In this document: positions 1 through 14,252 of the stretch, one piece after another
Numbering within the stretch: position 1 is the stretch's first letter
Layout: every line of letters starts with the position of its first letter
DNA from: Candidatus Hermodarchaeota archaeon
Lineage (GTDB): Archaea; Asgardarchaeota; Thorarchaeia; Thorarchaeales; Thorarchaeaceae
Reading direction: 5' to 3'
Assembly (NCBI GenBank): GCA_048885865.1
Contig: JBHLLF010000046.1
Coordinates: 1-20,099, forward strand
Length of the DNA stretch: 20,099 nt
Notes under the pieces: model-generated
Database searches by the model: none
Told to the model about the DNA's origin: nothing
What the model saw: only the letters and a program-made list of their open reading frames with translations
Position numbers and translations under genes: made by a program

Positions 1-524
1 ACGCGTCTGCCCATCTGATAAGCCATTCGCATGGCTTCCATATCATTCCTGATATCGCCTACATTCATGGCAAATCCTATTGGCCAAGAAACTCCCCCAG
101 GTACAATCATCTCCTTTACAAGCATAAAGAAAAGCATTTGATTGAGAGCAATATCTGCTCCAGATTTTCTTGCTACCACAAATGCGGCCCCGATCTTACC
201 CTCAAGGTGAGCGAATCGGCCAACGCGATCCAGAAAGCTCTTCATTTGAGATGTAACGCTTGCATAATGCACAGGAGAGCCAAATATAATGCCATGGGCC
301 TTGTACATCTTTTCAATTATAGGATTCAGGTCATCATCTTGACTACAGCGCCCAAGTTCATAGCATTTCAGATAATGTTTGCACGGATTGATGTCAAAGT
401 CAGCAAGCTCAATGAACTCAATACTAGCACCATACTCCTCTGCGGCATCAAGAGCGGTTTCAACAAGAATTGATGTGTTGCCACCTTGCCTATTGCTGCC
501 AGAAATGCCTAGAACCTTTGCCAT
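1..524 (-). CDS. Iron-sulfur flavoprotein (Isf) / multimeric flavodoxin, NADPH-dependent FMN reductase family; 3' end runs off the window
   Basis: Not in the ORF track; translated by hand from ATG at 524: MAKVLGISGSNRQGGNTSILVETAL...INPCKHYLKCYELGRCSQDDDL...IIFGSPVHYASVTSQMKSFLDR...GKIGAAFVVARKSG. It has the flavodoxin FMN-phosphate loop (GSxRxxGNT), the GSPVH/Y motif and an Isf-type Cys cluster. No stop before position 1. Confidence 0.9.
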   Translation of the reverse strand, partial: MAKVLGISGSNRQGGNTSILVETALDAAEEYGASIEFIELADFDINPCKHYLKCYELGRCSQDDDLNPIIEKMYKAHGIIFGSPVHYASVTSQMKSFLDRVGRFAHLEGKIGAAFVVARKSGADIALNQMLFFMLVKEMIVPGGVSWPIGFAMNVGDIRNDMEAMRMAYQMGRR

Positions 525-593
525 ATTGAAACCTTCGGGGAGAGTTAAGTTACAGGAATTCAAATCGCAACCTTGTTCTTAAATCTCATTATA

Positions 594-639
594 ACTAAAA
601 AGAAAGCATATGCCACCAAAATGTCACTTTAGTGGCATA
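594..639 (-). terminator. Hairpin plus T-tract terminator downstream of ccmF
   Basis: TATGCCAC (609-616) and GTGGCATA (632-639) are a perfect inverted repeat, extendable with G-U pairs. On the minus strand it is followed by TGCTTTCTTTTTAG and lies about 22 nt after the ccmF stop. Confidence 0.65.
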
Positions 640-661
640 GATTGTTTCCTAACGGTCATTA

Positions 662-2734
662 TCATTCATTATCAGCTGAAAGAGGTGTTTCGTCCTCTTC
701 CTGTTCATCTTCGGGACCATAGAGGTGCTCATTCTTGTCCTTCAAGGATCTTCTGAAATCAGAGAACTCCATTGCACCTAGTGGGAGCAACGCCATGACC
801 ATTAGGAAGGCTCCTAACCATACGAAAGACACGATTGGAAGAATCCTCGCTTGGAGCTCTACGCTATAAGTCATTGGAGCAACCTGGTCAAACGTCCGAA
901 GAGACACAAATACATCCCGTAGAGCTGTCGTCTGCACGAAGACATCCTGTGTCAATGATTGCCATTGCGGATTTCCTTTGACAACTAGGAGGCCCAACCA
1001 GGCTGAGTTTCCTTCTATCACCGCGATTACTACTTGTAATTCGAAATCATACTCATTTATCCAATACACCAAGTTGATTTCACTCACTCCAACTGTTATT
1101 CCTGAGGAGCCCAGTTCATGCGATTGATCTTTGAGATATGTGTTGGTTTGATTGATGACCACATTCTCACTCAGAAAGACTCCCAGAAGCAGTACGATTA
1201 GACCAAGGTGTAGCATGAGGCGTCCCATTCTTCGCATTGTGAATGCACCAACCTCTTTTCCTGCAATGGTTCGGGCGAATGCAACAATAAGGTATCCTAA
1301 GGCAAAGATAGCAATAGGAATCAACGCGTTGGCTTGCCAATAGTATGTGGGCAGAGCTTGCTCAGTTGTAACTGTCAGAACAGCAAGGACTCCACCAACT
1401 CCTAGCAGAGCAAGAATGCCAATTGCCTTCATCTTTGCCCTCAGAATTGTACTTCTCATGCAGTAGAATGCAGATACAATCAAGAGCAAAGACCCAGCGT
1501 AAAATCCAGCTCGGAAGAACTCTATTCCTATCGACACCATATTCTCAGTAAATTCTGCTGGGTTTGTGATGGCACCAACGAGATTTATTGCTGCAGGCAG
1601 CACAACGCCTGAAACTGAGGTGGTCAGTATAACCAAGATGCCTATCAGTGCAACCTTTAATGAGAAATCTCTAAGATTTGAGAGCGAAAAGAAGCTCCAC
1701 CCTTGATCTTCCTCATCGTCAGACATGTCTACATACCCTGCCCTAATGGTGACTAAAGTTGCCAATAGGAAATTGAATACAACAGTGGCAAACATGGTCC
1801 AGCTGACTATACTAATAGTGAACCCATGCACTGAGTTTAGAACTCCACTTCTAGTGACCCATGTTGCATAGATAACAGTCACATAGGTAAAGACCAAGAA
1901 TGAATCTCTCAAGACATCATTATTCTTGAAGATTGCCTTCGCATGAAAGTATGCTGTGAGGAGTAGCCATGGTACCAGCGAGGTTGTTTCGACTGGGTCC
2001 CACGCCCAATAACCTCCCCACCCCAGGACAATGTATGCCCAGTAGCCGCCAATAGCTATACCAACTGAGAGTATGATCCATGAAGCAACTGTCATAAATC
2101 GAGTGAGTGAATCCAACACAGGAATGGGCTCAGCGTTGCGCTCTTCTGAACGAACTGTATATCCGGCGAGCTTCACTGAGAAGGGAACCACTGCAATTGC
2201 GTAGGCTATGAACACAATAGGCGGATGAATGACATTCCAAATAGTGCTGAGCAATGGATTCAGTCCTATACCATCAGCTGGAGTAGCACCCCCGAGAAAA
2301 GGTCTGAATGGATCAGAAGCTAGGGTATTGATTCCGATTAGAATGGTTTGAAGAGTCAGCAGTATTGCGCCTCTGTATACGATTGTATCATCCTCGTATC
2401 CTCGCAAAGAAATACGATAAGTGACAAGCAATAGAAATGAAATAGCAGTCCAGAATAGCAATGACCCAGACTGTCCTGCCCATAGCGCGGAGAGCTTGAG
2501 ATACCAGAGAGCCTCAATATTGGTTGTGACATAGACATACTCGTACTGAAACTGGTTGGTGAATATCAGGTTGCCCATCCAGAACAACGCACCCAATGCA
2601 GATAGACAACCTATTGATGTCAGAATGATCGATATCGTATCGTAGTTCTGAATTCTGGGACCAATTAGCAGAAGTATGATGTCCAACGAACCGACAATGA
2701 TAGCCAAAATTAGTAGAATTGTACCAAGATCCAT
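662..2734 (-). CDS. ccmF: Cytochrome c heme lyase, CcmF/NrfE family (System I holocytochrome c synthase), 690 aa
   Basis: Polytopic membrane protein with W(A)GQSGSLLFW, GLNPLL, HPP, the WWD domain WGGYWAWDPVET, TAYFH, TRSGVLNSVHGF and MLHLG. All four conserved CcmF histidines appear present. GGAGG RBS upstream. Confidence 0.93.
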   Translation of the reverse strand: MDLGTILLILAIIVGSLDIILLLIGPRIQNYDTISIILTSIGCLSALGALFWMGNLIFTNQFQYEYVYVTTNIEALWYLKLSALWAGQSGSLLFWTAISFLLLVTYRISLRGYEDDTIVYRGAILLTLQTILIGINTLASDPFRPFLGGATPADGIGLNPLLSTIWNVIHPPIVFIAYAIAVVPFSVKLAGYTVRSEERNAEPIPVLDSLTRFMTVASWIILSVGIAIGGYWAYIVLGWGGYWAWDPVETTSLVPWLLLTAYFHAKAIFKNNDVLRDSFLVFTYVTVIYATWVTRSGVLNSVHGFTISIVSWTMFATVVFNFLLATLVTIRAGYVDMSDDEEDQGWSFFSLSNLRDFSLKVALIGILVILTTSVSGVVLPAAINLVGAITNPAEFTENMVSIGIEFFRAGFYAGSLLLIVSAFYCMRSTILRAKMKAIGILALLGVGGVLAVLTVTTEQALPTYYWQANALIPIAIFALGYLIVAFARTIAGKEVGAFTMRRMGRLMLHLGLIVLLLGVFLSENVVINQTNTYLKDQSHELGSSGITVGVSEINLVYWINEYDFELQVVIAVIEGNSAWLGLLVVKGNPQWQSLTQDVFVQTTALRDVFVSLRTFDQVAPMTYSVELQARILPIVSFVWLGAFLMVMALLPLGAMEFSDFRRSLKDKNEHLYGPEDEQEEDETPLSADNE

Positions 2735-2751
2735 CTATTATGCCTCCTAAT

Positions 2752-4932
2752 CTAGTCACTCCTTGATGAACGCCTTCTTCTAGGCCGCTTCTTTGTAGAC
2801 CGTTTCCGTGCTTCTTTCTTGAGCACGCGTTGTGTAGACATAGCTCTCTCCCTACGCAATCTCGTAAAGCCATATCCTATTCCGGGTGCAATGACTAGCC
2901 CTATAGCAGCAAATGTTTGCCATGCAGCTCCAGGCGAGATAGGCCTTAATGCAAGGATGGTTAATCTATAGAATGCGCTTTCGCCTACATTTTGCGACTC
3001 GTCGACAGCTAGGCAATAGAACGAAACAACGTCGTCAGCATTGAAATTGCCTATATCCGCTACCCAAAGCATGTATTCACCATCAACATCATACCAGGTC
3101 ATATTCAGTGGTGCGTAAACTCCATCATTGACCTTCCAAAACAATTGGCACGATAATATGATGCTGTGAATTGGATATTCGTATATTCCAAACTCAACGA
3201 TAACGTCTTGACCTGCCAAGATCTCATCAGCTGGATAGGTTTGCCTTAATAGTACCACTGGCGCGTAGATGTCCAACTTCACATTGAAGAAGTAATTGCC
3301 AGCTATGAAGACGTTGCCTAGGGTGTCGTTGGCAAAAACGACGAAATTGACCTTGGTGCCATCTGGAAGCGGATTAATGGTGGTATTGAAAGTGCCAAGA
3401 ATATTCGCGTTTTCTGGGATCAGGACAATTGAGAGATTGGTTTGCCCGCTCTCATATTCTATTGACATATTTGCGAAAACTGTATCGATTCCGTCCGAGT
3501 CGGATGCTGTTACGAGCAGTGTGATATTATCAGTTGGTCTTGGATTCGTTGGCGACACTCGTACATATGAAATGATTGGAAGCCCAAATGACCAAATCCG
3601 TTCAAGAGCCAGAACCCCGAGACCTTGAACTGCAGCGATATGAATCCTCCACCCTTCAGAAAATACATATCCCTCTCTGTCACTATTCTGGAAGAATCCG
3701 CCATATTCTATATCCCATAGTTTGGCAATGACGAGGTCCAATGTATCTATTGTGAGTTGAATGAAGAATGTGTTAGAGGTGACTTCATAGAGATCTTCAA
3801 GAGTCAAAACCATTTGGAACTGGATTTCTGAGTACTTGAACCACTTAACATCCTCATCGTCGAGGGGGTCATATGGATCTCCATCCAGGGTTTCAGCAAA
3901 CCAAGCACCGTACAATTGATCCCAATTATTAGCCAGAACCGCATAGAATGTATCTTCAGCCCAGTCAAGATAGGTAGTGTTGTGGGTAATTTGATATCCT
4001 CGCAAAAGTGCCCTAATTGCCATTGCATTGATATCTGTAACGACAGTTCTCGCAGGTCTCTCCACCTCGTTGACAACTGGGTCCCCCCCAGTTCTATTAA
4101 CCGCTAATCGCATCCCAAAATAGTGGCTTGTTTCATTAATGTAAGGCATATGCTTAATCATGAAATCCAATGAACGATTAGCCATAGCAATAAGTGTAGC
4201 ATTCCCAGTGGATTCCCCAGCATCATAAAGAGCTGATATACCTAATGCAATGTGGTCCAACCTCTTTCCGTCAGCAGGATAAACCTCGTAAATGTATGAT
4301 GGAATGTTTAGCGAGCCATTGCGCAACGTGAAGAAATGGAAACCTCCATTTTCCGAATCGTACAACATATCAGTTAGGCAGTCGATAGCGCTCTGCTTCT
4401 CTGCTGTAAAATTAAGTGTTGAATCGATATTCTCAGCGATTACAAGCGCATTGTAGGCATATGCCTGAATTCCAGCTCTTTTGGATTGAGTAACCTCTGT
4501 TGGTGACCAAGTATTGATGTAGAATCCCGGGTATACTGGATCCATGTATAGCTCGACCATTTTAGTCGCCATCTTTCCAATCACTGAGAATAGCGTTGCA
4601 TTACCTGTTATATTGTAAATCCTACTCAGTGCAGAGATTGCCCAATAATAGTCGGCAAGAGCAGACCCATTCAAAATCAGGTTGTATTGAAAGTCAGCTT
4701 CGTGGAAGACCGTGCCATCATATACATTGACCAAGTTGTCTATCAATGCACTACCTGAGGCAAAAGCGAAGTCTAGATAAGAGCTGATGTTTTGCGGTGT
4801 TTGTGCTTCAATAGGAGTATGAATGGTCTCTAGTTCAAACGTGAAACCTGTATTCTTCTGAGTATGTAGTGGTCCCATATTCAATATGATTAAGACCAGT
4901 ATAAGTGAAAGCAGCACTGGTTTCTTTTTCAT
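2752..4932 (-). CDS. Membrane-anchored surface protein: six-hairpin (alpha/alpha)6 glycosidase/AGE/YyaL-like barrel plus Ig-like domains, C-terminal TM helix and basic tail; function unknown
   Basis: N-terminal signal peptide (MKKK + hydrophobic stretch). Repeated helical-hairpin units (ALSRIYNITGN, ALYDAGESTGN, ALLRGYQITHN, TLEDLYEVTSN; turns D-x3-GGF / W-D-x3-G). Beta-rich modules (VSPTNPRPTDNITLLVTASDSDGIDTV...FANDTLGN). TM helix near the C-terminus and more than a dozen NxS/T sequons. Confidence 0.7.
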   Translation of the reverse strand: MKKKPVLLSLILVLIILNMGPLHTQKNTGFTFELETIHTPIEAQTPQNISSYLDFAFASGSALIDNLVNVYDGTVFHEADFQYNLILNGSALADYYWAISALSRIYNITGNATLFSVIGKMATKMVELYMDPVYPGFYINTWSPTEVTQSKRAGIQAYAYNALVIAENIDSTLNFTAEKQSAIDCLTDMLYDSENGGFHFFTLRNGSLNIPSYIYEVYPADGKRLDHIALGISALYDAGESTGNATLIAMANRSLDFMIKHMPYINETSHYFGMRLAVNRTGGDPVVNEVERPARTVVTDINAMAIRALLRGYQITHNTTYLDWAEDTFYAVLANNWDQLYGAWFAETLDGDPYDPLDDEDVKWFKYSEIQFQMVLTLEDLYEVTSNTFFIQLTIDTLDLVIAKLWDIEYGGFFQNSDREGYVFSEGWRIHIAAVQGLGVLALERIWSFGLPIISYVRVSPTNPRPTDNITLLVTASDSDGIDTVFANMSIEYESGQTNLSIVLIPENANILGTFNTTINPLPDGTKVNFVVFANDTLGNVFIAGNYFFNVKLDIYAPVVLLRQTYPADEILAGQDVIVEFGIYEYPIHSIILSCQLFWKVNDGVYAPLNMTWYDVDGEYMLWVADIGNFNADDVVSFYCLAVDESQNVGESAFYRLTILALRPISPGAAWQTFAAIGLVIAPGIGYGFTRLRRERAMSTQRVLKKEARKRSTKKRPRRRRSSRSD

Positions 4933-4970
4933 TGATTAATTATCTCCTTCGAGTCGCGGTTGCAATTTTT

Positions 4971-4988
4971 AAGGTGTATATACATCTT
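4971..4988. promoter_or_regulatory. 18-bp near-perfect palindrome, candidate transcription-factor site next to the TATA-like box of the 4932 gene
   Basis: AAGGTGTATATACATCTT has one mismatched pair and a perfect TGTATATACA core. On the minus strand it abuts TTAAAAA, followed by the AAGGAGA RBS and ATG at 4932. Confidence 0.5.
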
Positions 4989-5038
4989 TGGTTTCAAAAA
5001 AGCCAAAATTCACGTATGTTTATTGCAGAACTCGAGAG

Positions 5039-5084
5039 GAAAAAATAGAGAGGGGTGCAGATGCTAAGCATCCGCCACCGCCCT
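5039..5084 (-). terminator. GC-rich hairpin plus T-tract terminator after the multiheme cytochrome gene
   Basis: The minus strand reads GCGGATGC-TTA-GCATCTGC (stem with one G-U pair, extendable by GGT/ACC), then CTCTATTTTTTCC, 25-70 nt after the stop at 5110. Confidence 0.65.
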
Positions 5085-5109
5085 TGAGTTTTCCTTCTTA
5101 TGTCCGTTT

Positions 5110-6573
5110 CTAGCGGCGTCTGCCCACTAGAAGTCCTAGAACCAATCCGATGACGATACCGCCAACACTGCCGCCTATTAGAAGCAGAGTGTCTCCACCC
5201 AATACAGTAACAGTATTAGTGACTGTATTGGTGACAGTAACTGTGACGCCCTCAGCAGTGGCCTCATAGAATGTGGCCTTCGCATTTAGTAGATCTGCAT
5301 AGACTGCATTCAATTCGGCAAATACCTGAGTGCCATCATGGAATCCGGATGAGCCATCGTATCCGAAGTACCCTACAAGTGTTTCTGCTTCGTCAATTGC
5401 AGCCTGCATTGCATTGGCGGCGGCAACGTCAGCTCCAGCTGACGCATTGTATGTCGCTACCTCTGCGGCCATTGCTGAAGCCTCAGCAGAGATTTCCTGG
5501 GTCAGAGCCAGAAATGCATCTTGACGCATCTCAAGCTGGCCGAGAGCCCATGTGTCCATGCCTTCATGACACCCTAGCTCATCTACATCTCTTGCTTGAC
5601 CGCAAGCAATGTCAGGATCTAGAGCAAAGGTGTGATTCAGGTCATAACGCCACGCGTCACGGTAGTACACTAGGGAATATCCATGACAGTCAGTGCACTT
5701 CACGCCAGCAAGATTGTGAGACCCTCCAATCCAAACCTCATACTGTGGATGGCGGGCTCCATTGTGACAAAGTCCACACAGTTCGGAAGTATTAACTGCC
5801 CGAATCTGAGCGTTGCCTTCTACTGCTGTCCAGTTAGAATGCACTGCGTGACAAGCAGGACAAGAAATCGAGTTGTAGTCTCCGGCGGGATCAAAGCCGA
5901 GGTCAACGGCTGCGTCTCCGTAGTTAGATAGCGAGCCAGGATTCTGCTGATGGATGAAGGCTTCAGTAGACATGCAATGCATACATTCTGATGATGCATG
6001 AGTGCTTGTTCTTAGATCCGTCAGCGAGTTGGCATGAGCCGAGTTCTGCCATTCTGGATATTCGTTGCGGGTCGCGTGATAACCAGGGTTGTGACAGTTA
6101 CCACAGACCGATCCGTTATAGGTAACATAGGGCTGCGTCACGTCATGGCAAGCAAGACATGTGACTCCCAAGTTAACCCATGACCCATTACCGTCATTAC
6201 CGGCTGGATCATATCCAGTTGCGTGACAGGGTGCACACGTACTGTTGTAGTACGTGGCATTCCGTTCACCATGCAGACCTATTACATACGTCCCATTGAA
6301 CGTCTGCTCATACCCTTCATCGGCGTGTCCACTCTCATTCCAGTAGTTCCACTGATCTGGATGACAACCACCGCAGGTAAGATTGTCTTGCGTTGGATTC
6401 GGGAACGCCAAACCAAAATCATGCTCATATCTATCAGGATTCCCAACCAATGTGATCGGAATGCCTGATCCCGTTGGTCCAAGGAAAATTGCAAAGCCTA
6501 TCAAGCACAGGAAGAGGTAGTAACCTGCGACCATCCGCTTGTTGACTTCTGGAACCTCTTTATAGTATACCAT
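5110..6573 (-). CDS. Surface-anchored multiheme cytochrome c (7 CxxCH + CxxCM + CX10CH; c554/c552-NrfA-like architecture), 487 aa
   Basis: Canonical motifs CGGCH, CAPCH, CLACH, CGNCH, CPACH, CGLCH and CTDCH, plus CMHCM and CGQARDVDELGCH. Repeated W-x2-S-x-H distal-ligand motifs. C-terminal helical domain with DGSSGFH, as in NrfA/c552-like MHCs. N-terminal hydrophobic segment, Thr-rich linker, C-terminal TM helix and RRR. Confidence 0.92.
   Translation of the reverse strand: MVYYKEVPEVNKRMVAGYYLFLCLIGFAIFLGPTGSGIPITLVGNPDRYEHDFGLAFPNPTQDNLTCGGCHPDQWNYWNESGHADEGYEQTFNGTYVIGLHGERNATYYNSTCAPCHATGYDPAGNDGNGSWVNLGVTCLACHDVTQPYVTYNGSVCGNCHNPGYHATRNEYPEWQNSAHANSLTDLRTSTHASSECMHCMSTEAFIHQQNPGSLSNYGDAAVDLGFDPAGDYNSISCPACHAVHSNWTAVEGNAQIRAVNTSELCGLCHNGARHPQYEVWIGGSHNLAGVKCTDCHGYSLVYYRDAWRYDLNHTFALDPDIACGQARDVDELGCHEGMDTWALGQLEMRQDAFLALTQEISAEASAMAAEVATYNASAGADVAAANAMQAAIDEAETLVGYFGYDGSSGFHDGTQVFAELNAVYADLLNAKATFYEATAEGVTVTVTNTVTNTVTVLGGDTLLLIGGSVGGIVIGLVLGLLVGRRR
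5204..5247 (-). repeat. Short coding tandem repeat encoding the VTVTVTNTVTNTVTV stalk
   Basis: 6/12-bp periodic GTGAC/CAGTA units inside the cytochrome gene, just before the C-terminal TM helix. Confidence 0.6.
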
Positions 6574-7024: not shown

Positions 7025-9625
7025 GTGAAGAAGCTCACACCTATGCAAAGGCAATATCTCGAATTGAAAAAGCAATATCCAGACTGTATTCTATTATTCA
7101 GACTAGGTGATTTCTATGAGATGTTCAATGAAGATGCAAAGGTGGCGAGCAAGGATCTCGATATCGTATTGACCTCCAGAGGAGAGGGAGTCGCAAAATG
7201 GCCTATGTGCGGAGTTCCTCATCATGCAGTAGATGGCTATGTTGCCAAACTCCTTGCATCTGGTCACACTGTTGCCATCGCTGACCAGGTTGAAGATGCA
7301 TCTCAGGCCAAAGGCCTAGTGAAGAGAGATGTTGTTCGTGTAGTGACTCCTGGTACAGTCCTAGAAACAGGCATGCTGGAAGATGCCACCAATAATTACT
7401 TGCTTGCAATAATTGAGGACTCTGAAAAAATTGGTATGGCTGCAGTTGATGTGTCTACTGGAGAGTTTGTCGCAACAGAGTTTGATGGAAACTACCTGAG
7501 CGAAAACACACTGAATGAGCTTGGGAGGATAAAGCCTTCAGAAATACTACTCCCCGAAACCATATCGAAGAATCAGACTATGCGTTCGACTCTTGAGGAA
7601 CTGGGAGTGCGGCTGACATTTCGAAATGACATGGATTTCTCAGCAAGAGATGCGGAACAAAGACTCAAGGACCAATTTGGTGTGACCACGATTGAGGGCT
7701 ACGGCTTAGGCGACAAGGATGTCGCTCTTGGTGCCGCGGGAGCTGTAATGGCCTACCTGCAGGAAGTGCATAAGGCAAATGCAGTAACGCTTACCGGGCT
7801 CCAGACCTACACGATTGACTCTCATATGGTAGTCGACAGTACTACACAGAGAAACTTGGAGCTCATACGAAATGCCAGGGACGGAACCCCTCGCGGAACG
7901 CTCCTTAGCGTCTTATCCAAGACTGTCACCCCAATGGGCAAGCGAAAACTCAAACAATGGATTCTCCAGCCACTCACAGATATTCCTTCGATCGAGAGAA
8001 GACTTGATGCAGTTGATGAGTTGGCAAGGACCGCACTCACGCGGAAGGCTGTTTCAGATAGTCTAAGGAACCTTGGAGACCTTGAGAGAATCACCAGCAG
8101 GATCGTGTTTGGGGTTGCGGGTGCGAGAGACCTTCTTGGCCTCAGAATTGCACTTGAGAAACTGCCTAAGATTCGCAAGACGCTGGAGGAATGCAAGGCA
8201 GAACTCCTTCAATCTTCTGCCAAGTCAATTGACCTCTTGAAGAATCTGACAAAGACCTTGAAGGCTGCAATCGTCGATGACCCGCCGGTGAGTGTCCGCG
8301 ACGGAGGCATGATTCGTGAGGGCTTTGACGAAGGGCTTGATGGATTGAAGGGATCAATATCATCTGATAAAAAGTGGATTGCATCACTGCAAGCGAGGGA
8401 GAGAAGAAGAACAGGCATCAAGTCACTGAAAGTGGGGTACAACAAGGTCTTTGGATATTACATCGAGGTCTCGAAGTCGAACCTAAGCCTGGTTCCAGAT
8501 GATTACGATAGGAAACAGACACTGACCAATGCAGAGAGATATATCACTCCGGAATTAAAGGAAAAGGAGGCTGCTGTTCTAGCAGGAGAGGACAAGATAA
8601 ACGCTCTCGAATTTGAGATATATGAGAACCTTAGAAACCAGGTCAGAGATGCAATAGAAGAACTACGGGCAAACTCAGAGGCTATCGCGGCTGGTGATGT
8701 GCTGGCATCATTAGCAGAAGTGGCAGTGAACAGGAGATACACCAGACCCAAACTAACAGATGGAACCAGAATCAAGATTGTTGAAGGTAGACATCCTTCT
8801 CTCGAGATGATACTCGGTGCAAATGAGTTCGTTCCCAACAATGTTGAGATAGGTGACGGTGGAAGTTCGCTCATTATTGTTACAGGTCCAAATATGGCTG
8901 GTAAGTCGACATTTATGCGCCAGTGCGCGTTGATAGTGCTCCTCGCGCAGATGGGTTCCTTCGTACCTGCGAAGTCGGCAGAGATTGGTATGGTAGACAG
9001 AATCTTCACAAGAGTTGGAGCCTTTGATGACCTCACAGCTCGTCAGTCAACTTTCATGGTTGAAATGATTGAGACCGCTAACATCATCAACAATGCTACT
9101 GAGAAGAGCTTGGTAATTCTTGATGAGATTGGAAGGGGAACATCAACCTATGACGGCATGGCACTTGCTTGGGCAGTGGCTGAACGGATCGTGCAGATGA
9201 AGTCACGCGCCATGTTTGCAACTCACTTCCACCAATTGACTGAGATGGCAAGTACTCATCATGGTGTCAAAAACGTTCATACATTGGCTAGAGAGTCTGG
9301 CGATACTATTGTGTTTCTGCACAAAGTGGTCGATGGAGGAACCGACAAGAGCTATGGTGTTCAAGTAGCGGCTTTGGCAGGTATCCCTGACGAGGTGGTG
9401 AAGAGAGCACGCTCAATGCTAGCAAGCTTGGAAAAGCAGAGTGCAGTAAATCTAAGGGAAAGCGGCGAAGCCTATGAGCCTGTCCAGACAAGCCTAGAAG
9501 CACTAACCATTGAAGACCCAATTGTTGAGCGTATCAGACACATGGACCTAGATCGAACGACACCTGTCGATGCCCTTGTCAAGCTAAAGGAACTTCAGGA
9601 TGAGGCTCGTTCAAGAGAAGACTGA
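7025..9625 (+). CDS. mutS: DNA mismatch repair protein MutS (MutS1), 866 aa
   Basis: TPMQRQY, mismatch-recognition motif GDFYEMF, MCGVPHH, VVRVVTPGT, Walker A TGPNMAGKST, STFMVEM, Walker B ILDEIGRGTST, FATHFHQL and SYG. GTG start with GGGAGG RBS. Confidence 0.98.
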   Translation: MKKLTPMQRQYLELKKQYPDCILLFRLGDFYEMFNEDAKVASKDLDIVLTSRGEGVAKWPMCGVPHHAVDGYVAKLLASGHTVAIADQVEDASQAKGLVKRDVVRVVTPGTVLETGMLEDATNNYLLAIIEDSEKIGMAAVDVSTGEFVATEFDGNYLSENTLNELGRIKPSEILLPETISKNQTMRSTLEELGVRLTFRNDMDFSARDAEQRLKDQFGVTTIEGYGLGDKDVALGAAGAVMAYLQEVHKANAVTLTGLQTYTIDSHMVVDSTTQRNLELIRNARDGTPRGTLLSVLSKTVTPMGKRKLKQWILQPLTDIPSIERRLDAVDELARTALTRKAVSDSLRNLGDLERITSRIVFGVAGARDLLGLRIALEKLPKIRKTLEECKAELLQSSAKSIDLLKNLTKTLKAAIVDDPPVSVRDGGMIREGFDEGLDGLKGSISSDKKWIASLQARERRRTGIKSLKVGYNKVFGYYIEVSKSNLSLVPDDYDRKQTLTNAERYITPELKEKEAAVLAGEDKINALEFEIYENLRNQVRDAIEELRANSEAIAAGDVLASLAEVAVNRRYTRPKLTDGTRIKIVEGRHPSLEMILGANEFVPNNVEIGDGGSSLIIVTGPNMAGKSTFMRQCALIVLLAQMGSFVPAKSAEIGMVDRIFTRVGAFDDLTARQSTFMVEMIETANIINNATEKSLVILDEIGRGTSTYDGMALAWAVAERIVQMKSRAMFATHFHQLTEMASTHHGVKNVHTLARESGDTIVFLHKVVDGGTDKSYGVQVAALAGIPDEVVKRARSMLASLEKQSAVNLRESGEAYEPVQTSLEALTIEDPIVERIRHMDLDRTTPVDALVKLKELQDEARSRED

Positions 9626-9822
9626 GCTCACGAGGCGTATTCAGAGATATGCAAGGCGAAAAACCATGAAAGTCTATGTTTCTACTCTATTAGAATAGAA
9701 CGTTTAATCTCTCATCCCTCCCAGAATTTCAAGTCATCTTCGTATCAAAACCTTCTTAGACCCTTCTGAGCGAAACGACCCTCTTGTAATGAGCGATTGC
9801 CTTGAGGTTCGAAGAAGTGGTA

Positions 9823-10374
9823 ATGACTGAGATAATCATTGTCTTGGGTGTCATCTATCTCCCTTTCCGAATCTGGCTAGATGAATTCAAGCTTCAAGAT
9901 GAACTCCTATTTCGACGAAGATACTTCAGCAGGTTCTTCTCCTATTATTTAGGCATAGCGCTGTTACTTGGACTTAGCGCATACCCGTTCAATATCATGG
10001 TAATGGTGGCATTCCCAATTCTGGTGGTGACCTCCATTTGGGATATCAACTTCTATCGCAGATTTAGTTCGCAGACTTACTGGACAAAAAATAAGTGTTG
10101 GATGCTAATCGAGAGAATAACCATGCACCCACCTGTGGTGTTAGTTGCGATCTTCATGATTTTCAATGGGGCTAGGAACTACATAGAACCACCGAATCTG
10201 CTTCTGATGGCAGGAATTATCGTTCTTCTTTACTTACCATTTTTCCTATTTGACGAGAGATGGACAAAACGATACAAGTGGCCTGAAGCAGTAATTATTG
10301 TTGGTCTCTTTCTGGCCTCAGGATTATCATTGATTCTTGCAGAAGCAATCCTTTGGGGGGTTCCGATTTGGTGA
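9823..10374 (+). CDS. Hypothetical polytopic membrane protein (about 6 TM helices)
   Basis: Open frame with alternating hydrophobic segments and basic loops. ATG at 9823 preferred over TTG at 9802. Its stop overlaps the next gene's start (GTGA). Confidence 0.75.
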   Translation: MTEIIIVLGVIYLPFRIWLDEFKLQDELLFRRRYFSRFFSYYLGIALLLGLSAYPFNIMVMVAFPILVVTSIWDINFYRRFSSQTYWTKNKCWMLIERITMHPPVVLVAIFMIFNGARNYIEPPNLLLMAGIIVLLYLPFFLFDERWTKRYKWPEAVIIVGLFLASGLSLILAEAILWGVPIW

Positions 10375-11645
10375 AAGAGCTAAAATCATCATTCAAGTCA
10401 TTCTGGAGTTATCTTCGGGAGTCTCGTCTGCTTACATTCGGACTTGCTTTTAGTCTAGTCTATTATCTTGCTGTAGTGATACTGTTTGTATTCTACTTGA
10501 CTCAAGGAGTATTAGCCGATACGATTTTCACAATGGACTTTCAAGTATTTTATGAATCAGGAATAGTGTTTCGAAACTCTCCTGGAGAAATCTACGCAGT
10601 TGCTCCAAATGAGTTACCATACAGATACCTTCCTTCGTTTGCTGCCATTATGGCGATATTCTCGCTTATCCCTTTAATGCCACTATACTTGATTAATATC
10701 TCCTTGATGATGATGATTAACTTTGGAATTGCTTTCCTTGTATTCTCAATTTGTCAGCATTTGGGAGTAACAACTTCTACAAAGAACTTCGAGAAGACAC
10801 TAGCAATTCTTTTCATCACGCCGCCTCATATCATCAATCTAGTTTTAGGCCAAATAACACATCTAGCAATATTCATCGTTCTTCTGGCGTTATACCTTCT
10901 TCAAACAAATGATGATGATTCTGTTCGTAGATTCCTCTTCATTGGAGCACTCATAGGTATTGCAACGGTGCTGAAACCATTCTTTATCGTTCTTTATTCC
11001 TTTATAATTCCAATTTCATTCACAGAGAGATTTAGTCTCAATGTCCCCCTAAGACCCGTCTTTGGAACAACATTGGGATTCCTAGCCACAATGCTACCAA
11101 ACGTTGTGTACTTCATTGCATTTCCGAGTGCGATTGACGAGTTTGTGCAGGTGAACTTCTCGGGTGGGTTACCCTATCAACACAGTACGAGTATCACACA
11201 ACTATTGGTTGATATTCTAAACTTGGGTGATTACACTACTATTGTTTTGATGATTATGTTGGTCATTGGTAGTTTCATATTTGTAAGAAGCTACTACAGA
11301 TTTGTTAGAACGCCTGCGTCCGAGAAGAACTATCTTCATCACTTCACTGATGTGATATTCCTATTCCTCATGGTGTATGCTGAATCTTGGTTTCTATTCA
11401 TAGCAGTATTGTATGCGTTTCTTGCACCGTCTATGCTTCAGCTTTACGCTTGCGAAGTTAATGGAAGTGAAAAGCGCTATCTAGATCTTCTATGGTCAGG
11501 TTCGAACAATCTTCTAGCATTCTTCTCAATCGGTATTGCTTTGGATTTCTTGTTGCTGGGATTTGATCCCATAAATCCGATTTGGATAGCTATCCTCTAT
11601 ATCTTGTATCAAAGGGAATATTGTCTAAATATTAATAGTTCATGA
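10371..11645 (+). CDS. Glycosyltransferase family 87 (GT-C fold, DUF2029/PimE-like)
   Basis: First external loop DFQVFYESG, then YRYLP, NLVLGQ and a K-P motif (TVLKPF), with about 10-11 TM helices. GTG at 10371 is coupled to the upstream stop. Confidence 0.82.
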   Translation: MKELKSSFKSFWSYLRESRLLTFGLAFSLVYYLAVVILFVFYLTQGVLADTIFTMDFQVFYESGIVFRNSPGEIYAVAPNELPYRYLPSFAAIMAIFSLIPLMPLYLINISLMMMINFGIAFLVFSICQHLGVTTSTKNFEKTLAILFITPPHIINLVLGQITHLAIFIVLLALYLLQTNDDDSVRRFLFIGALIGIATVLKPFFIVLYSFIIPISFTERFSLNVPLRPVFGTTLGFLATMLPNVVYFIAFPSAIDEFVQVNFSGGLPYQHSTSITQLLVDILNLGDYTTIVLMIMLVIGSFIFVRSYYRFVRTPASEKNYLHHFTDVIFLFLMVYAESWFLFIAVLYAFLAPSMLQLYACEVNGSEKRYLDLLWSGSNNLLAFFSIGIALDFLLLGFDPINPIWIAILYILYQREYCLNINSS

Positions 11646-11847
11646 TTATCTCATGCATTTTATTGGCCGCGCTCCTTCCATCAGCTATAGCATGAGCTAA
11701 TTCGGTTCTCACTTCTCAGCAAGCATGTAGCCATCCCGAAGCAAAATCACTTGCGTGTTCTTGACTAGATTCAATAGGATAGAATGCATATCGAAGAATA
11801 TCATTAGTCAAGGGATTTGCTAAGAAGGACATCTGGAGGATTGGAAG

Positions 11848-12765
11848 GTGATTCGGGCTGTCAATGTGACTAAGCATTTCGAAGATATCGTTGCGGTTGA
11901 CAATATCTCTCTTGATGTTCCCCAAGGAACGATTCTTGGTATGGTGGGACCGAATGGCGCAGGAAAGACAACTCTTGTACGTATGATGATTGGTATTCTA
12001 GCTCCAACACTTGGAAATTGCTACATTGGAGAAACACAGTCAAATCGTCTCTCCACTGAGGAACGAGCCCGTACAGGATACATGACTCAGCTCAAATCGC
12101 TCTACCCCGATTTGACCGCACGAGAAAATCTCGATTTCTTTGCATCTAGCTATGGAGTCAAGAATCAGCAAAGAAGAAAGGAGCTAGTCGAGCAGGCAGC
12201 CAGATTCACTCGGATTACAGAATCACTAGACCGTACAGTGGATGTGCTCAGTGGTGGCACAATTCAACGAGTGAGTCTTGCTTGTGCAATAGCTCATGAT
12301 CCCGAAGTAATATTCCTTGACGAGCCCACAGTGGGGGTCAGCCCCGAATTGAGATTGGAATTTTGGAATCATTTCCACAATCTTGCTAATGAAGGTAAGA
12401 CGATTGTTATGACAACACACTATCTCGATGAGGCAACGAGATGCGATAATGTTGCTATGATCTTTGAGGGAAGATTAATCGCTCATGGTCATTCGGACGA
12501 CCTGATTGGTTCTCTGCCTCTTGAGAGTACAATCACTGGCACTATTGACCCTAGCAATTCCACTCAGCTAAAGAGCATCTTGGAGAATCTAGCTCCCACT
12601 GAAATCAAAGGAAACCGATTCACTATAAAATCAGCAGACAGTGATGTCAAATTCAAAGTGTTTCAGGCTCTAACACGAGCTCATTTCCAAATGAAGGACC
12701 TTGTTGTGAAGCAACCTGGTCTTGAGGAGGCATTCGCTTATTATGTCAGGAGGTCGCGACAATGA
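11848..12765 (+). CDS. ABC-2 type exporter ATP-binding protein
   Basis: Walker A GPNGAGKT, signature LSGG, Walker B FLDEP, H-loop TTHYLDEA and a C-terminal extension ending LEEAF. GGAGG RBS. Confidence 0.95.
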   Translation: MIRAVNVTKHFEDIVAVDNISLDVPQGTILGMVGPNGAGKTTLVRMMIGILAPTLGNCYIGETQSNRLSTEERARTGYMTQLKSLYPDLTARENLDFFASSYGVKNQQRRKELVEQAARFTRITESLDRTVDVLSGGTIQRVSLACAIAHDPEVIFLDEPTVGVSPELRLEFWNHFHNLANEGKTIVMTTHYLDEATRCDNVAMIFEGRLIAHGHSDDLIGSLPLESTITGTIDPSNSTQLKSILENLAPTEIKGNRFTIKSADSDVKFKVFQALTRAHFQMKDLVVKQPGLEEAFAYYVRRSRQ

Positions 12766-14252
12766 GTCGCAGTATCAGCTCTCACCGTGTTGGTACAATG
12801 ATACGGAGAATCTTCCGTCAGATTCGTCGAGACCGACCAACTCTTGCCTTAATGGTTCTTGCACCATTACTGATCACCTTCCTGTGGTCATTCATTCTTT
12901 CAGGAGAGGTTGTAAATGTCCCAACGGCTGTATGCATTCAGGATACCCCTCTTGAAGAGAGCCTTGGAGCCACTGTAGTATCCTTATTCGAAGAAAATGA
13001 AAATGTGACAGTCTTTGAGAGGTTTCGTGCTAATGCTTTTGATGATCTTGGAGAATCGATACAAGCAGTTCTCTTATTGCCCTTCAATTTTACAGAGGGC
13101 CTTCTAACAGGTGGAAATGTCACGCTCGAATTGCATGTTAATGTGACTAGCGAGATGGAAGCAAACTATATTCTAGCAATGATAGGAAATGTCACTACAC
13201 AGGCTGCCAGCGAGGTATTTGGCAGCAGAGGCGTTGAGATAAAACGTAACATAACATTCTCAGTACCAATTCCTCCAAGTCCGATTGACCTATCATTCAA
13301 CCTTTCTCTTGTGAATGAAGATGTTGGATTCACAACTACGATTGGTGAAATCCTTGAAGACACCTTGTCAGAAAATGGTAATGTGTCTATCACCATGTGT
13401 GATAGCCCTGAGGAAGTTGTGGAGTTAATCGAATCCAGATCTGTAGTGGCAGGGATCTATATAGGTCCTAATTTCACAAAAGCCACGATAAGTGGTGAAG
13501 AACAGCCCATAGATCTATTCATGAATGGTATACAAGCCGCAGAAGCTGCTTCAGCATTGACGGCAATTCAGATGTCACTATCTGAATCAATCTCCCAGGC
13601 TTTTGGGCGAGAGAGTGAAACCAGTGTGGATCTTACATATGTCTATGGAGAAGCAGGAATGCAAATGATAGAAATTATGGGCCCAGCTATTATTGGATTC
13701 ATGGGTGTTTTCTTCGGTTTTCTTATTCCAGGAATTTTCTTCCTACGAGAAAGACAACAAGGCACATTGGAGAGAATGCAAAGTACGCCCTTATCAGATC
13801 TTGAGATTGTACTCGGGTACTCTGTTGCGTTCATTGGCGTTCTCTTAATTCAGACAATAGTCATTAGCATTGTAATAATCTACATCTCTCCAGGAATACT
13901 TTCGTCTATCTTATTGTTGATTCCTCTAGTTGTTCTCTTGGCAATAGGATCTGTCACACTTGCACTGGCAATTTCGGTTCGAATGAAAAATGAACTGCAG
14001 GTGATACAGCTCATGCTCGTCTTCATCCTCCCCCAGATGTTCCTATCTGGACTCTTGTTCCCCTTGAGTCAGATGCCATCATACATCGCCTTGGTCCCTT
14101 ACTTCTTTCCTCTCACATATTATGTGGAGGCAGCGAGAGCAGTGGCTTTCTATAATGCATCCATTCTAGATGAAATCATACCTGTGATAATCATGATACT
14201 ATACTGCTTGCTTGGCATCACGGCATCTGTGGTCAAACGATCCAAGAGGTGA
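12762..14252 (+). CDS. ABC-2 type exporter permease with tandem-duplicated extracytoplasmic domain
   Basis: N-terminal RRDR-TM1, a large external region, RERQQGTLER, PQMFLSGLLFPLSQMP and PLTY. ATGA overlap with the ATPase gene. Confidence 0.92.
   Translation: MSRSISSHRVGTMIRRIFRQIRRDRPTLALMVLAPLLITFLWSFILSGEVVNVPTAVCIQDTPLEESLGATVVSLFEENENVTVFERFRANAFDDLGESIQAVLLLPFNFTEGLLTGGNVTLELHVNVTSEMEANYILAMIGNVTTQAASEVFGSRGVEIKRNITFSVPIPPSPIDLSFNLSLVNEDVGFTTTIGEILEDTLSENGNVSITMCDSPEEVVELIESRSVVAGIYIGPNFTKATISGEEQPIDLFMNGIQAAEAASALTAIQMSLSESISQAFGRESETSVDLTYVYGEAGMQMIEIMGPAIIGFMGVFFGFLIPGIFFLRERQQGTLERMQSTPLSDLEIVLGYSVAFIGVLLIQTIVISIVIIYISPGILSSILLLIPLVVLLAIGSVTLALAISVRMKNELQVIQLMLVFILPQMFLSGLLFPLSQMPSYIALVPYFFPLTYYVEAARAVAFYNASILDEIIPVIIMILYCLLGITASVVKRSKR

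Follow-up and report, generated by a model that had tools for sequence, protein, structure and literature searches.

The window considered here, the whole 20,099-nucleotide stretch of DNA analysed, is the entire contig C46 of a Thorarchaeota (Asgard) genome with a completeness of 87% and raises the question of how a multihaem cytochrome with two irregular haem motifs is matured and what the proteins encoded beside it contribute. The original prediction was that three co-oriented genes, encoding the cytochrome, a barrel protein and a stand-alone CcmF, make up a self-contained module in an archaeon with the CcmF being a dedicated paralogue for the unusual motifs.

The trio and the contig junction

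The three ORFs, encoding the cytochrome P0001 (5110..6573, 487 aa), the barrel protein P0002 (2752..4932, 726 aa) and the CcmF P0003 (662..2734, 690 aa), were all found on the minus strand at the coordinates given and with both odd motifs, and the host is indeed archaeal, a member of the Thorarchaeota. The gap between the cytochrome and barrel genes is 177 nt, while the start codon of ccmF lies 17 nt past the barrel stop. Directly after the ccmF stop there is a terminator-like hairpin on the minus strand (609..639) with a 14-bp stem and a T-rich tail, a call that is only suggestive in an archaeon as the consensus used in the scan was built for bacteria.

The noted lack of ccmA, ccmB, ccmC and ccmE is literally true of the window, but these genes are present on contig C66 directly beyond its edge. 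The first 77 nt of the window (1..77) exactly match the last 77 nt of C66, a contig with ccmA-B-C-orf131-ccmE at that end, and because of this overlap a full variant System I adjoins the trio. An NADPH-dependent FMN reductase gene recognised by Pfam, the N-terminal part of which occupies 3..563 on the minus strand, spans the C46/C66 junction with a joined ORF of 223 aa, or 210 aa counted from the probable start Met, the end of ccmE lying 19 nt before its stop. The joined gene order is colinear with that of a relative (G066:C50), with the same ccm layout found in at least 10 relatives and ccmABC(D)E lying beside ccmF in every relative with enough flanking sequence. Most relatives in the genus have the FMN reductase gene between ccmF and ccmE; it is missing in G010 and G065. 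The stand-alone appearance of ccmF is an effect of the contig break, with window positions 1-6573 probably forming the right half of a ~10.5-kb cytochrome c island in which ccmA-B-C-orf131-ccmE would be followed convergently by the genes for the FMN reductase, CcmF, the barrel protein and the nonahaem cytochrome.

The nonahaem cytochrome and its irregular sites

P0001 has seven CXXCH motifs, one CMHCM and one CX10CH, giving nine haem sites the positions of which align to those of OcwA and NrfA, and its best match in a PDB profile search was OcwA (6I5B, E 3.6e-23) followed by NrfA and ONR. P0001 was shown to be a homologue of OcwA, the cell-surface terminal reductase of Thermincola potens JR (PDB 6I5B; PMC6703420) that is, along with OmhA, the closest known system and with which it shares nine haem sites in the same order (haems 1-4 c554-like, haems 5-9 NrfA-like), a C-terminal three-helix bundle, a distal His motif over haem 5 and, as predicted for P0001, cell-surface display. 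P0001 starts with an N-terminal TM helix, followed in order by a c554-like module of four haems, an NrfA-like module of five, the three-helix bundle (helices 340-376, 383-406 and 414-439, with pLDDT >90 in an AF2 model that is poor for the cytochrome as a whole, pLDDT 55), a Thr/Val stalk and, at the C-terminus, a TM helix with RRR as the last residues. The TM anchor helices at both ends are conserved and P0001 has 11 N-x-S/T sequons, supporting its prediction as a membrane-anchored, outward-facing multihaem protein. The P0001 family differs from OcwA in having C-x-H-C-(M/Q) rather than CLKCH at haem 5, CX4-11CH rather than CXXCH at haem 9 and often CX4-5CH at haem 1, while the archaeal protein is held by TM helices at both ends and its type is always encoded with the barrel protein and ccmF (two CxHCM copies discussed below apart), which homologous bacterial loci lack.

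The NCBI pipeline names many homologues of P0001 as NrfA, Pfam Cytochrom_C552 (PF02335) aligns to residues 273-447, and OcwA itself reduces nitrite in vitro (PMC6703420), all of which would be in keeping with P0001 being an ordinary ammonia-forming nitrite reductase. This is however scarcely credible for a protein that has nine sites rather than five, that carries CXXCM and no CXXCK at the equivalent haem, that is membrane-anchored at both ends and that scores 18.9 and 16.5 bits against NrfA equivalog models (NCBIfam) with cut-offs of 595 and 692.5. Nor does the genome encode an NrfH or NrfB-like multihaem partner, one paralogue being the sole other multihaem ORF. The mature cytochrome would be displayed at the surface as a terminal oxidoreductase, serving extracellular electron transfer and/or the reduction of small molecules at haem 5. 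The activities expected of OcwA-like cytochromes at the cell surface are the reduction of iron oxide, nitrite and hydroxylamine. No quinol dehydrogenase of the NrfH/CymA type to feed the cytochrome was seen among the two multihaem ORFs of the genome.

The haem-5 site of P0001 (C197-M-H-C200-M201, residues 197-201, 5971..5985, minus strand, by alignment to 6I5B) is the positional equivalent of OcwA haem 5 (CLKCH) and of NrfA haem 1 (CXXCK), the catalytic haem of NrfA, and lacks the proximal CXXCH His expected for the OcwA-like family. C-x-H-C-(M/Q) was found in about 118 of 122 homologues, with M, Q or L following the second Cys in 118/122 (CX2CM in 102, CX2CQ in 15 and CX2CL in one, with His in two), and M198 and H199 are 97% conserved. 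This haem-site motif is not known to have been described previously. The haem-9 site (C324-X10-C335-H336, residues 324-336, 5566..5604, minus strand) corresponds in the alignment to the final CXXCH of OcwA and NrfA, a loop displacing its first Cys, and its spacing across the family ranges from CX4CH to CX11CH, CX5CH being commonest (76/122) and CX10CH occurring in 8/122. Haem 1 is canonical in P0001 (CGGCH, 6361..6375, minus strand) and is CX4CH or CX5CH in most homologues including a 90%-identical orthologue in G066. Both odd motifs are kept across homologues, which supports the view that they are genuine, conserved features of the family, as was originally supposed, and not errors.

On the distal side of haem 5, R274-H275-P-Q277 (5743..5754, minus strand) aligns to the (R/H)-H-P-x-Y motif common to OcwA (HH380/381) and NrfA (HPEYE), with R274-H275 corresponding to the non-bonding HH of OcwA above the distal face of haem 5. 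H275 is conserved in 80% and Y278 in 85% of homologues, while 61% have R and 27% have H at position 274. A haem at C-x-H-C-(M/Q) would as such keep an NrfA/OcwA-like distal pocket with a non-His proximal side, where Met or Gln may be the ligand. There is precedent in haem 1 of NrfH, in which, in the structure of Desulfovibrio NrfHA, the Met of CXXCHXM rather than the motif His is the proximal ligand of a c-type haem. The NrfH motif nevertheless still has its His with the Met two residues later, whereas in P0001 and its homologues Met or Gln directly follows the second Cys and the His lies inside CxxC. Met201 may not be the ligand, since neither the variant CARCV of giant relatives nor the one CX2CL offers a ligand at +1.

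It is possible that CxHC(M/Q) holds no haem, its Cys, His and Met residues instead binding a soft metal such as Cu(I) or forming a redox disulphide beside the haem chain. Each of the five residues could ligate Cu, and the alternation of M, Q and L at the last position recalls the axial position of blue-copper sites. In a covarying fashion (CMHC(M/Q) versus CM(Y/R)CH), the His has moved from the position after the second Cys (+1) to the one before it (-1); a Cys-ligated Cu is also found in the active site of MccA. That the C-x-x-C spacing is invariant and aligns with OcwA haem 5 and that the NrfA-type distal motif is kept make this improbable, as do the giant multihaem relatives, each of which has 3-9 copies of the CxHC(M/Q)-type element lying between two CXXCH sites, as fits a haem in a chain.

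CcmF and the maturation system

P0003 matches Pfam Cytochrom_C_asm (PF01578) with 97.3 bits (cut-off 29.9) and Thermus CcmF (6ZMQ) with an E of 5.5e-31, the WWD and His residues being aligned, and the WWD domain (W239-E249) together with H170, H264, H303 and H509 is invariant in 24 CcmF orthologues, the CcmF/NrfE lyases being characterised by this domain and by four His residues of which two are periplasmic and two TM. Its scores against NCBIfam models of the CcmF/NrfE family fall below the cut-offs, both for TIGR00353 (151.9 bits, cut-off 569) and for the best match, the NrfE subfamily (177 bits, cut-off 927). Judged from its sequence P0003 is a divergent archaeal CcmF.

Only two PF01578 matches were found in the genome, P0003 and the CcmC on C66. 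In this 87%-complete genome no second CcmF was detected by tblastn with P0003 or with the PF01578 profile, and there was no match for a CcsA/ResC-type lyase beyond CcmC or for CcmH (PF03918). CcmB and CcmE are likewise encoded on C66, with the C-terminus of CcmE carrying CPSKY (CxxxY). The maturation system was shown to be the archaeal variant System I, with a CxxxY CcmE and no CcmH. In combining CcmABC, a CxxxY CcmE and CcmF without CcmH, the locus resembles the variant System I ('System I*') of archaea and some bacteria that Allen et al. reportedly described in 2006, differing in that the gene immediately upstream of ccmF encodes a conserved 726-aa barrel protein, predicted to be extracytoplasmic, ccmD is replaced by a 131-aa membrane ORF and the whole system lies in one island with its client. 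CcmF and CcmABCDE would attach all nine haems outside the membrane, including those at the sites of variable spacing (haem 1, CX2-5CH; haem 9, CX4-11CH) and at C-x-H-C-(M/Q).

Odd haem motifs are served by dedicated lyase systems such as NrfEFG (CXXCK), SirEFG and CcsA1 (CX15CH of MccA/SirA). The likeness extends to an odd motif at the position of the NrfA catalytic haem, an expanded CXnCH at the last haem and an odd-motif cytochrome with genes for a CcmF-family lyase and an accessory protein next to its own, although the accessory candidate here is an (alpha/alpha)6 barrel and not CcmH-like (NrfF) or TPR (NrfG), and no second, housekeeping lyase was found. The original prediction that ccmF is a dedicated paralogue, working like NrfE or CcsA1 beside a housekeeping lyase, could draw on ccmF adjoining its client gene in every lineage, on the two CcmFs kept by the two-module genomes G017, G030 and G250 and on NrfE as best NCBIfam match, albeit far below the cut-off. 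Such an arrangement is very unlikely as it is already contradicted by the finding of one CcmF only in this 87%-complete genome, with ccmABCDE genes adjoining it and with a canonical-site paralogue on C37 that has no other lyase available; moreover the stand-alone CcmFs of Hodarchaeota fall inside the module clade with no separate housekeeping lineage. The CcmF was shown to be the sole lyase found, with this cytochrome and one paralogue its only evident clients. The genome has two multihaem ORFs, both of this cytochrome family, and the lyase is as such dedicated only by default.

Conservation of the module and the role of the barrel protein

The order cytochrome-barrel-ccmF is the same in 24 Thorarchaeota loci of the family, a 25th being cut by a contig end, and recurs in Hodarchaeota/Heimdallarchaeota and in the Asgard family f18 at 23-38% identity, each with a C[LI]HCM cytochrome, a barrel protein and a CcmF. 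This recurrence is far beyond chance. The cytochrome is present in 38/86 genomes and CcmF in 39/86, both confined to the same five of 16 genera. The three gene trees are congruent, the two modules of G017 falling in different clades in each, while the CcmFs of Thorarchaeota and Hodarchaeota group as sisters (SH-aLRT 89), separately from all other CcmFs in the sample, archaeal and bacterial, and include the second CcmF of those Hodarchaeales genomes that have one. It was shown that the trio behaves as a single module in at least three Asgard families, its genes being passed on, duplicated and lost together, and the expected synteny was borne out, as was the association of CxHC(M/Q) with the barrel and one CcmF clade across Asgard lineages.

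P0002 was modelled by AF2 (mean pLDDT 82.8) with an N-terminal signal/anchor helix followed by an (alpha/alpha)6 barrel (residues 50-449, 3586-4785), a pair of Ig-like beta-sandwich domains (residues 453-658, 2959-3576) and a C-terminal TM helix with a poly-basic cytoplasmic tail of ~35 aa (residues 667-726, 2755-2934), all on the minus strand, and the protein contains 17 sequons. Foldseek matched it to AGE, cellobiose-2-epimerase and YihS folds in the PDB at 12-16% identity (best E 9e-16 to 8H1L; TMt 0.75-0.82 to several AGE enzymes), and the only Pfam match was GH88 at 17.5 bits, under the cut-off of 26.6. The modelled barrel superposes with that of the AGE superfamily (N-acylglucosamine and cellobiose 2-epimerases, YihS), but P0002 is predicted to be extracellular and membrane-anchored with two Ig-like domains, and this low identity and sub-threshold Pfam match set it apart as does the AGE catalytic His pair (H227 and H431), which is invariant in Thorarchaeota but not conserved in Hodarchaeota homologues (23-27% identity). 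Polar residues that are invariant between the two groups include D131, K151, D226, D338, K366, E369, D396, W428 and Q436. All full-length relatives carry Asgard labels, nearly all of them Thorarchaeota. P0002 would be an extracytoplasmic, membrane-anchored partner specific to CxHC(M/Q) cytochromes.

What this partner does may be read in two ways, and we lean slightly towards the barrel acting with CcmF in maturation of the odd sites over its being a subunit of the finished enzyme. Among bacterial and other archaeal homologues, no barrel gene lies near any of 70 loci carrying CXXCH or near a further one carrying CXXCK, and these include Thermoplasmata/Euryarchaeota loci in which a canonical nine-CXXCH cytochrome lies beside ccmABCE-F; since other archaea run variant System I without it, the barrel is not needed for canonical sites. 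In keeping with this, Thorarchaeota paralogues with CM(Y/R)CH adjoin neither the barrel gene nor ccmF, and the loss of both cytochrome and barrel genes from G038, which has kept ccmF, also ties the barrel to the odd site.

Being large, predicted to be glycosylated and evolving as fast as the cytochrome, the barrel would suit the role of a surface partner no less than that of a chaperone. The chance that the barrel works with the mature cytochrome at the surface, as a subunit or a partner, is a fair way from negligible, though still doubtful, and its adjacency to ccmF would then come from island co-inheritance alone. Its conserved pocket could, for example, hold a glycan or a substrate that is organic or mineral-associated and offer it to haem 5, or the protein could tether the cytochrome in the envelope. 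Barrel and cytochrome share a build of sequons, C-terminal TM helix and basic tail, diverge alike (51% and 56% identity to G056, respectively, compared with 78% for CcmF) and have been deleted together in G038 while ccmF is retained, with the AGE-type fold and the polar residues invariant from Thorarchaeota to Hodarchaeota pointing the same way. A working partnership is less easily squared with a barrel gene that is tighter to ccmF than to the cytochrome gene, the barrel and ccmF ORFs overlapping in Hodarchaeota loci, or with the lack of conservation of the catalytic His pair, with a canonical-site paralogue that does without a barrel, or with extra CxHCM cytochromes that have no barrel of their own nearby, as found in two cases (G010:C74 and the Hodarchaeota locus L075).

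Taken as a whole, an island comprising a nine-haem surface cytochrome, its barrel partner and the sole CcmF with a variant System I is, with moderate confidence, the best overall explanation of the locus. No paper describing a cytochrome-barrel-CcmF module was found in the literature. The module suggests that Thorarchaeota, supposedly fermentative, can pass electrons outside the cell.

A nonahaem cytochrome with two odd haem sites

The cytochrome P0001 (5110-6573, minus strand, a 487-aa ORF) carries seven CXXCH motifs together with CMHCM at residues 197-201 and C-X10-CH at residues 324-336, and the three co-oriented genes and both odd motifs read by the original prediction are all present. The best PDB match for a profile of 58 homologues was OcwA, the nonahaem cytochrome of Thermincola potens (6I5B, E 3.6e-23), with NrfA and octahaem nitrite reductases next. 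OcwA is a cell-surface terminal reductase in which haems 1-4 superpose on cytochrome c554 and haems 5-9 on NrfA, with haem 5 forming an open penta-coordinate site (PMC6703420), and OcwA-type proteins have been treated as rare (PMC9250108). In the profile alignment CMHCM of P0001 takes the place of the OcwA haem-5 motif CLKCH, C-X10-CH takes that of the last CXXCH of both OcwA and NrfA, and R274-H275-P takes that of the distal HH (OcwA) or HPEYE (NrfA) motif. The profile-to-PDB sequence search was used instead of a fold search, for which the AF2 model of P0001, built without haems, was too poor (pLDDT 55). For annotation it matters that public records label these proteins NrfA nitrite reductase, contrary to the tests made here; the name is unsupported because NrfA equivalog models give 16-19 bits on P0001 against cut-offs near 600. 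Transmembrane helices at both termini, which are unusually conserved, 11 sequons and a Thr/Val stalk agree with one another and fit a displayed, membrane-tethered protein.

Judged by the names of close homologues, the genome is that of a Thorarchaeota MAG. Only two multihaem ORFs were found in the genome (87% complete), P0001 and a paralogue with 39% identity to it on contig C37 (C37:5281-6735, minus strand). The paralogue has a canonical haem 5 (CMYCH), with CX4CH at haem 1 and CX5CH at haem 9, and neither a barrel gene nor ccmF adjoins it.

Among 122 homologues of P0001 the haem-5 site reads CX2CM in 102, CX2CQ in 15, CX2CL in one and CX2CH in two, with M198 and H199 each 97% conserved. Since H199 is conserved and both canonical exceptions carry Y at its position, the His has effectively shifted from +1 to -1 relative to the second Cys. 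Haem 9 ranges from CX4CH to CX11CH, most often CX5CH (76), with CX10CH in only eight proteins, all from the subclade of P0001, while at haem 1 (CX4CH in 58, CX2CH in 42) the spacing switches even across 90%-identical orthologues. A sequencing error at M201 was ruled out, the motif being conserved in about 100 homologues, and judged from these alignments the odd motifs are family traits. System I normally needs the motif His, and Met as a haem ligand has a precedent in haem 1 of NrfH.

A profile search over 1.84 billion representatives found C-x-H-C-M well outside Thorarchaeota, both in 430-505-aa proteins, one cluster of which bears the name Hodarchaeota, and in giant proteins of 1,000-1,800 aa built from repeats of [CGxCH ... 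YCA(H/K)CMSP(F/Y)Q ... CIVCH]. The metagenomic giants P0251, P0254, P0264, P0267 and P0301 hold 3-9 tandem modules, one type (P0301) having CARCV. The repetition of the element between two ordinary haem sites argues that it holds haem, whereas the residue at +1 need not be a haem ligand, to judge from the variants CARCV and CX2CL. No description of CXXCM or CX2CM as a natural cytochrome c motif was found in the literature searched.

The single CcmF and its maturation system

CcmF (P0003; 662-2734, minus strand, 690 aa) belongs to the CcmF/NrfE family, with a WWD motif and four His that align to Thermus CcmF (6ZMQ) and are invariant among 24 orthologues. The original prediction had regarded this gene as stand-alone and as a dedicated paralogue for the odd motifs, and neither description survives. 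The window is the whole of contig C46, and its first 77 nt are the last 77 nt of contig C66, on which CcmB, CcmC and CcmE are encoded at 10337-12602, about 200 nt short of the contig end. Joining the two contigs restores an FMN reductase gene cut off at 3-563 of the window (joined ORF 223 aa), and the joined sequence is colinear with a contig of a relative (G066:C50) at 82-85% identity. The true layout is ccmA-B-C-orf131-ccmE directly past the window edge, then a convergent FMN reductase gene, ccmF, the barrel gene and the cytochrome gene, and an identical layout was found in every relative having enough flank. Nor was a second ccmF found for this one to be a paralogue of, a whole-genome PF01578 search having returned P0003 and one CcmC (on C66) and nothing else, and tblastn with P0003 having found no second copy in the genome (87% complete).

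The complete system adjoining the trio is, from its gene content and motifs, an archaeal variant of System I, in which CcmE ends in CPSKY and for which no CcmH was found in the genome (87% complete). The ORF in the ccmD position between ccmC and ccmE (P0239, C66:11820-12215) encodes a genus-conserved 131-aa membrane protein with no Pfam match; the ccmD case already reported concerns a different lineage (PMC10849945).

In the CcmF tree the Thorarchaeota clade and the Hodarchaeota clade are sisters (SH-aLRT 89), set off from the CcmFs of Thermoplasmata, of bacteria and of two other Asgard families. The second CcmFs that stand alone in Hodarchaeales nest within the Hodarchaeota clade, such that the tree points to a CcmF lineage associated with the module and to no separate housekeeping lineage.

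Co-inheritance of the three genes and possible roles of the barrel protein

Of the 86 species genomes surveyed in the family, 38 gave the cytochrome and 39 gave CcmF, both from the same five of its 16 genera, with strong barrel matches confined to those genomes. The 25 loci extracted from 23 genomes hold all three genes in the same order in every case but one, which starts within the barrel gene, and the order recurs in Hodarchaeota/Heimdallarchaeota and in a further Asgard family (f18). The broader proposal of a self-contained surface-cytochrome module stands, and the trio is co-inherited. The three protein trees are congruent, and because the two modules of one genome (G017, which has two ccmC copies) sit in different clades in each of them, duplication or transfer affects whole modules, and every module keeps a CcmF of its own. 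In G038 cytochrome and barrel genes have been jointly deleted; ccmF is intact there, and short remnants persist next to it.

At this locus (L021, G038:C297:14000-27772) ccmF is flanked by three small ORFs with membrane anchors, all of which bear one N-terminal CxxCH or CX3CH, and ccmC was not found in the genome (99% complete). In G058 a truncated cytochrome and a missing ccmC match 100-N scaffold gaps flanking the trio, making an assembly artefact more likely than gene decay. G009 (L022, G009:C1:2160000-2176000) has a cytochrome of canonical type (CMRCH) and CcmC, and no CcmF or barrel was found in it with protein or Pfam queries, although single-contig relatives may contain N gaps, as G058 does. 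A short contig (L036, G015:C107:1-2387) carries two tandem cytochrome genes of this family, of which the first is a C-terminal fragment and the second is complete.

A profile of non-Thorarchaeota CxHCM proteins, run against species-representative genomes, yielded 80 loci. CLHCM occurs in four Hodarchaeota/Heimdallarchaeota loci, with barrel and CcmF following in three, and further Hodarchaeales genomes (G250, G272, G298) hold one or two complete trios; in f18 (G108) a CIHCM cytochrome, barrel and CcmF lie beside ccmCEAB. The remaining 71 loci have CXXCH (70) or CXXCK (one) at the haem-5 site and none has a barrel, even where, as in Thermoplasmata/Euryarchaeota, a nine-CXXCH cytochrome lies beside ccmABCE and ccmF, so that the barrel follows the odd site and does not simply accompany a cytochrome or CcmF. 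At G010:C74 and at L075, the two exceptions, a CxHCM cytochrome has no barrel nearby; in G010 a barrel is encoded elsewhere. The Hodarchaeales loci (L154/L155 on G250:C50, L156 in G272, L159 in G298) are arranged as two full trios 16 kb apart or as one trio plus a stand-alone second CcmF, which in G298 lies about 3 kb from ccmC-A-B.

The barrel protein P0002 (2752-4932, minus strand, a 726-aa ORF) matches no Pfam family significantly. Its AF2 model (51 homologues, pLDDT 82.8) predicts an (alpha/alpha)6 barrel at residues 50-449, two beta-sandwich domains at 453-658, a transmembrane helix and a poly-basic tail of about 35 residues. Foldseek neighbours of the barrel are N-acylglucosamine and cellobiose 2-epimerases and YihS (E about 1e-15, 12-16% identity). 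Full-length sequence relatives bear Asgard labels only, nearly all Thorarchaeota, and the homologues in Hodarchaeota loci have 23-27% identity. Across the Thorarchaeota and Hodarchaeota proteins 41 residues are invariant, including D131, K151, D226, W337, D338, K366, E369, D396, W428 and Q436. As H227 and H431 are invariant only within Thorarchaeota and fall outside this set, P0002 is probably not an AGE-type epimerase.

In the mechanism proposed, haem would be delivered by CcmABC(D)E and attached at all nine sites by CcmF, which would have to cope with CX2-11CH spacings and with one site without the motif His. The distal pocket of haem 5 would be kept from the NrfA/OcwA type and its proximal side would be new, with the mature cytochrome acting as a surface terminal oxidoreductase. 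The barrel protein may be a maturation factor alongside CcmF, in keeping with the tight or overlapping barrel-ccmF junction, the lack of a barrel at canonical-site loci and the extra cytochrome copies served in trans. Alternatively it may be a partner of the finished cytochrome, with which it shares a surface build, a similar evolutionary rate and joint loss in G038, and for which its conserved polar pocket could also speak. A bolder reading, which we offer tentatively and think rather unlikely, joins these elements: C-x-H-C-(M/Q) would be a new covalent haem motif whose proximal side offers Met or Gln in place of His, loaded by the barrel protein as a new Asgard-specific extracytoplasmic maturation factor with CcmF (replacing CcmH/NrfF/NrfG), and the product would be a catalytic or terminal haem passing electrons of Thorarchaeota and Hodarchaeota to extracellular acceptors or partners.

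Electron supply and significance

No NrfH/CymA-type protein was found in the genome (87% complete). Directly left of the window past the junction and immediately upstream of ccmA, C66:310-9606 encodes two pairs of FAD-linked oxidase and CCG/4Fe-4S proteins (GlcD/GlcF- or HdrD-like), with a UbiA prenyltransferase, a polyprenyl synthase and a geranylgeranyl reductase, which could supply the cytochrome with electrons and with a lipid carrier. The C37 paralogue adjoins a Ras-family small GTPase gene, and complex-I-like genes for NuoH, four antiporter-like subunits and a NuoI-like 2x[4Fe-4S] protein are located about 1 kb away. Taken together, these neighbourhoods are suggestive of a membrane electron chain. 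Divergent from the cytochrome gene, the window encodes a full bacterial-type MutS with domains I-V (7025-9625, plus strand), followed by ORFs at 9802-10374 and 10353-11645 with no Pfam match and an ABC-2 transporter pair at 11848-14252. A promoter and terminator scan of bacterial type gave nothing above shuffled sequence except one hairpin after ccmF.

Each part is of a known kind, the cytochrome being a member of the OcwA/NrfA superfamily, the maturation genes a variant System I and the barrel an AGE fold. In the literature searched there appears to be no account of the CxHC(M/Q) site, of the barrel protein or of their constant pairing with CcmF among Asgard lineages, and no description of a cytochrome-barrel-CcmF module in Thorarchaeota or other Asgard archaea was found. 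For cytochrome biogenesis the locus makes a natural test case, since over 100 proteins retain a motif without the usual His of System I, and giant multihaem proteins carry it in repeats.

Models of Asgard archaea generally cast them as fermenters or syntrophs. Genomes of Heimdallarchaeia and Helarchaeales have been reported without cytochromes (PMC9979476). About 40% of Thorarchaeota species, and Hodarchaeales too, encode a conserved surface nonahaem cytochrome with its own maturation system, by which both groups could plausibly pass electrons to the outside or to other species, and such electron transfer bears on syntrophy models of the origin of eukaryotes.
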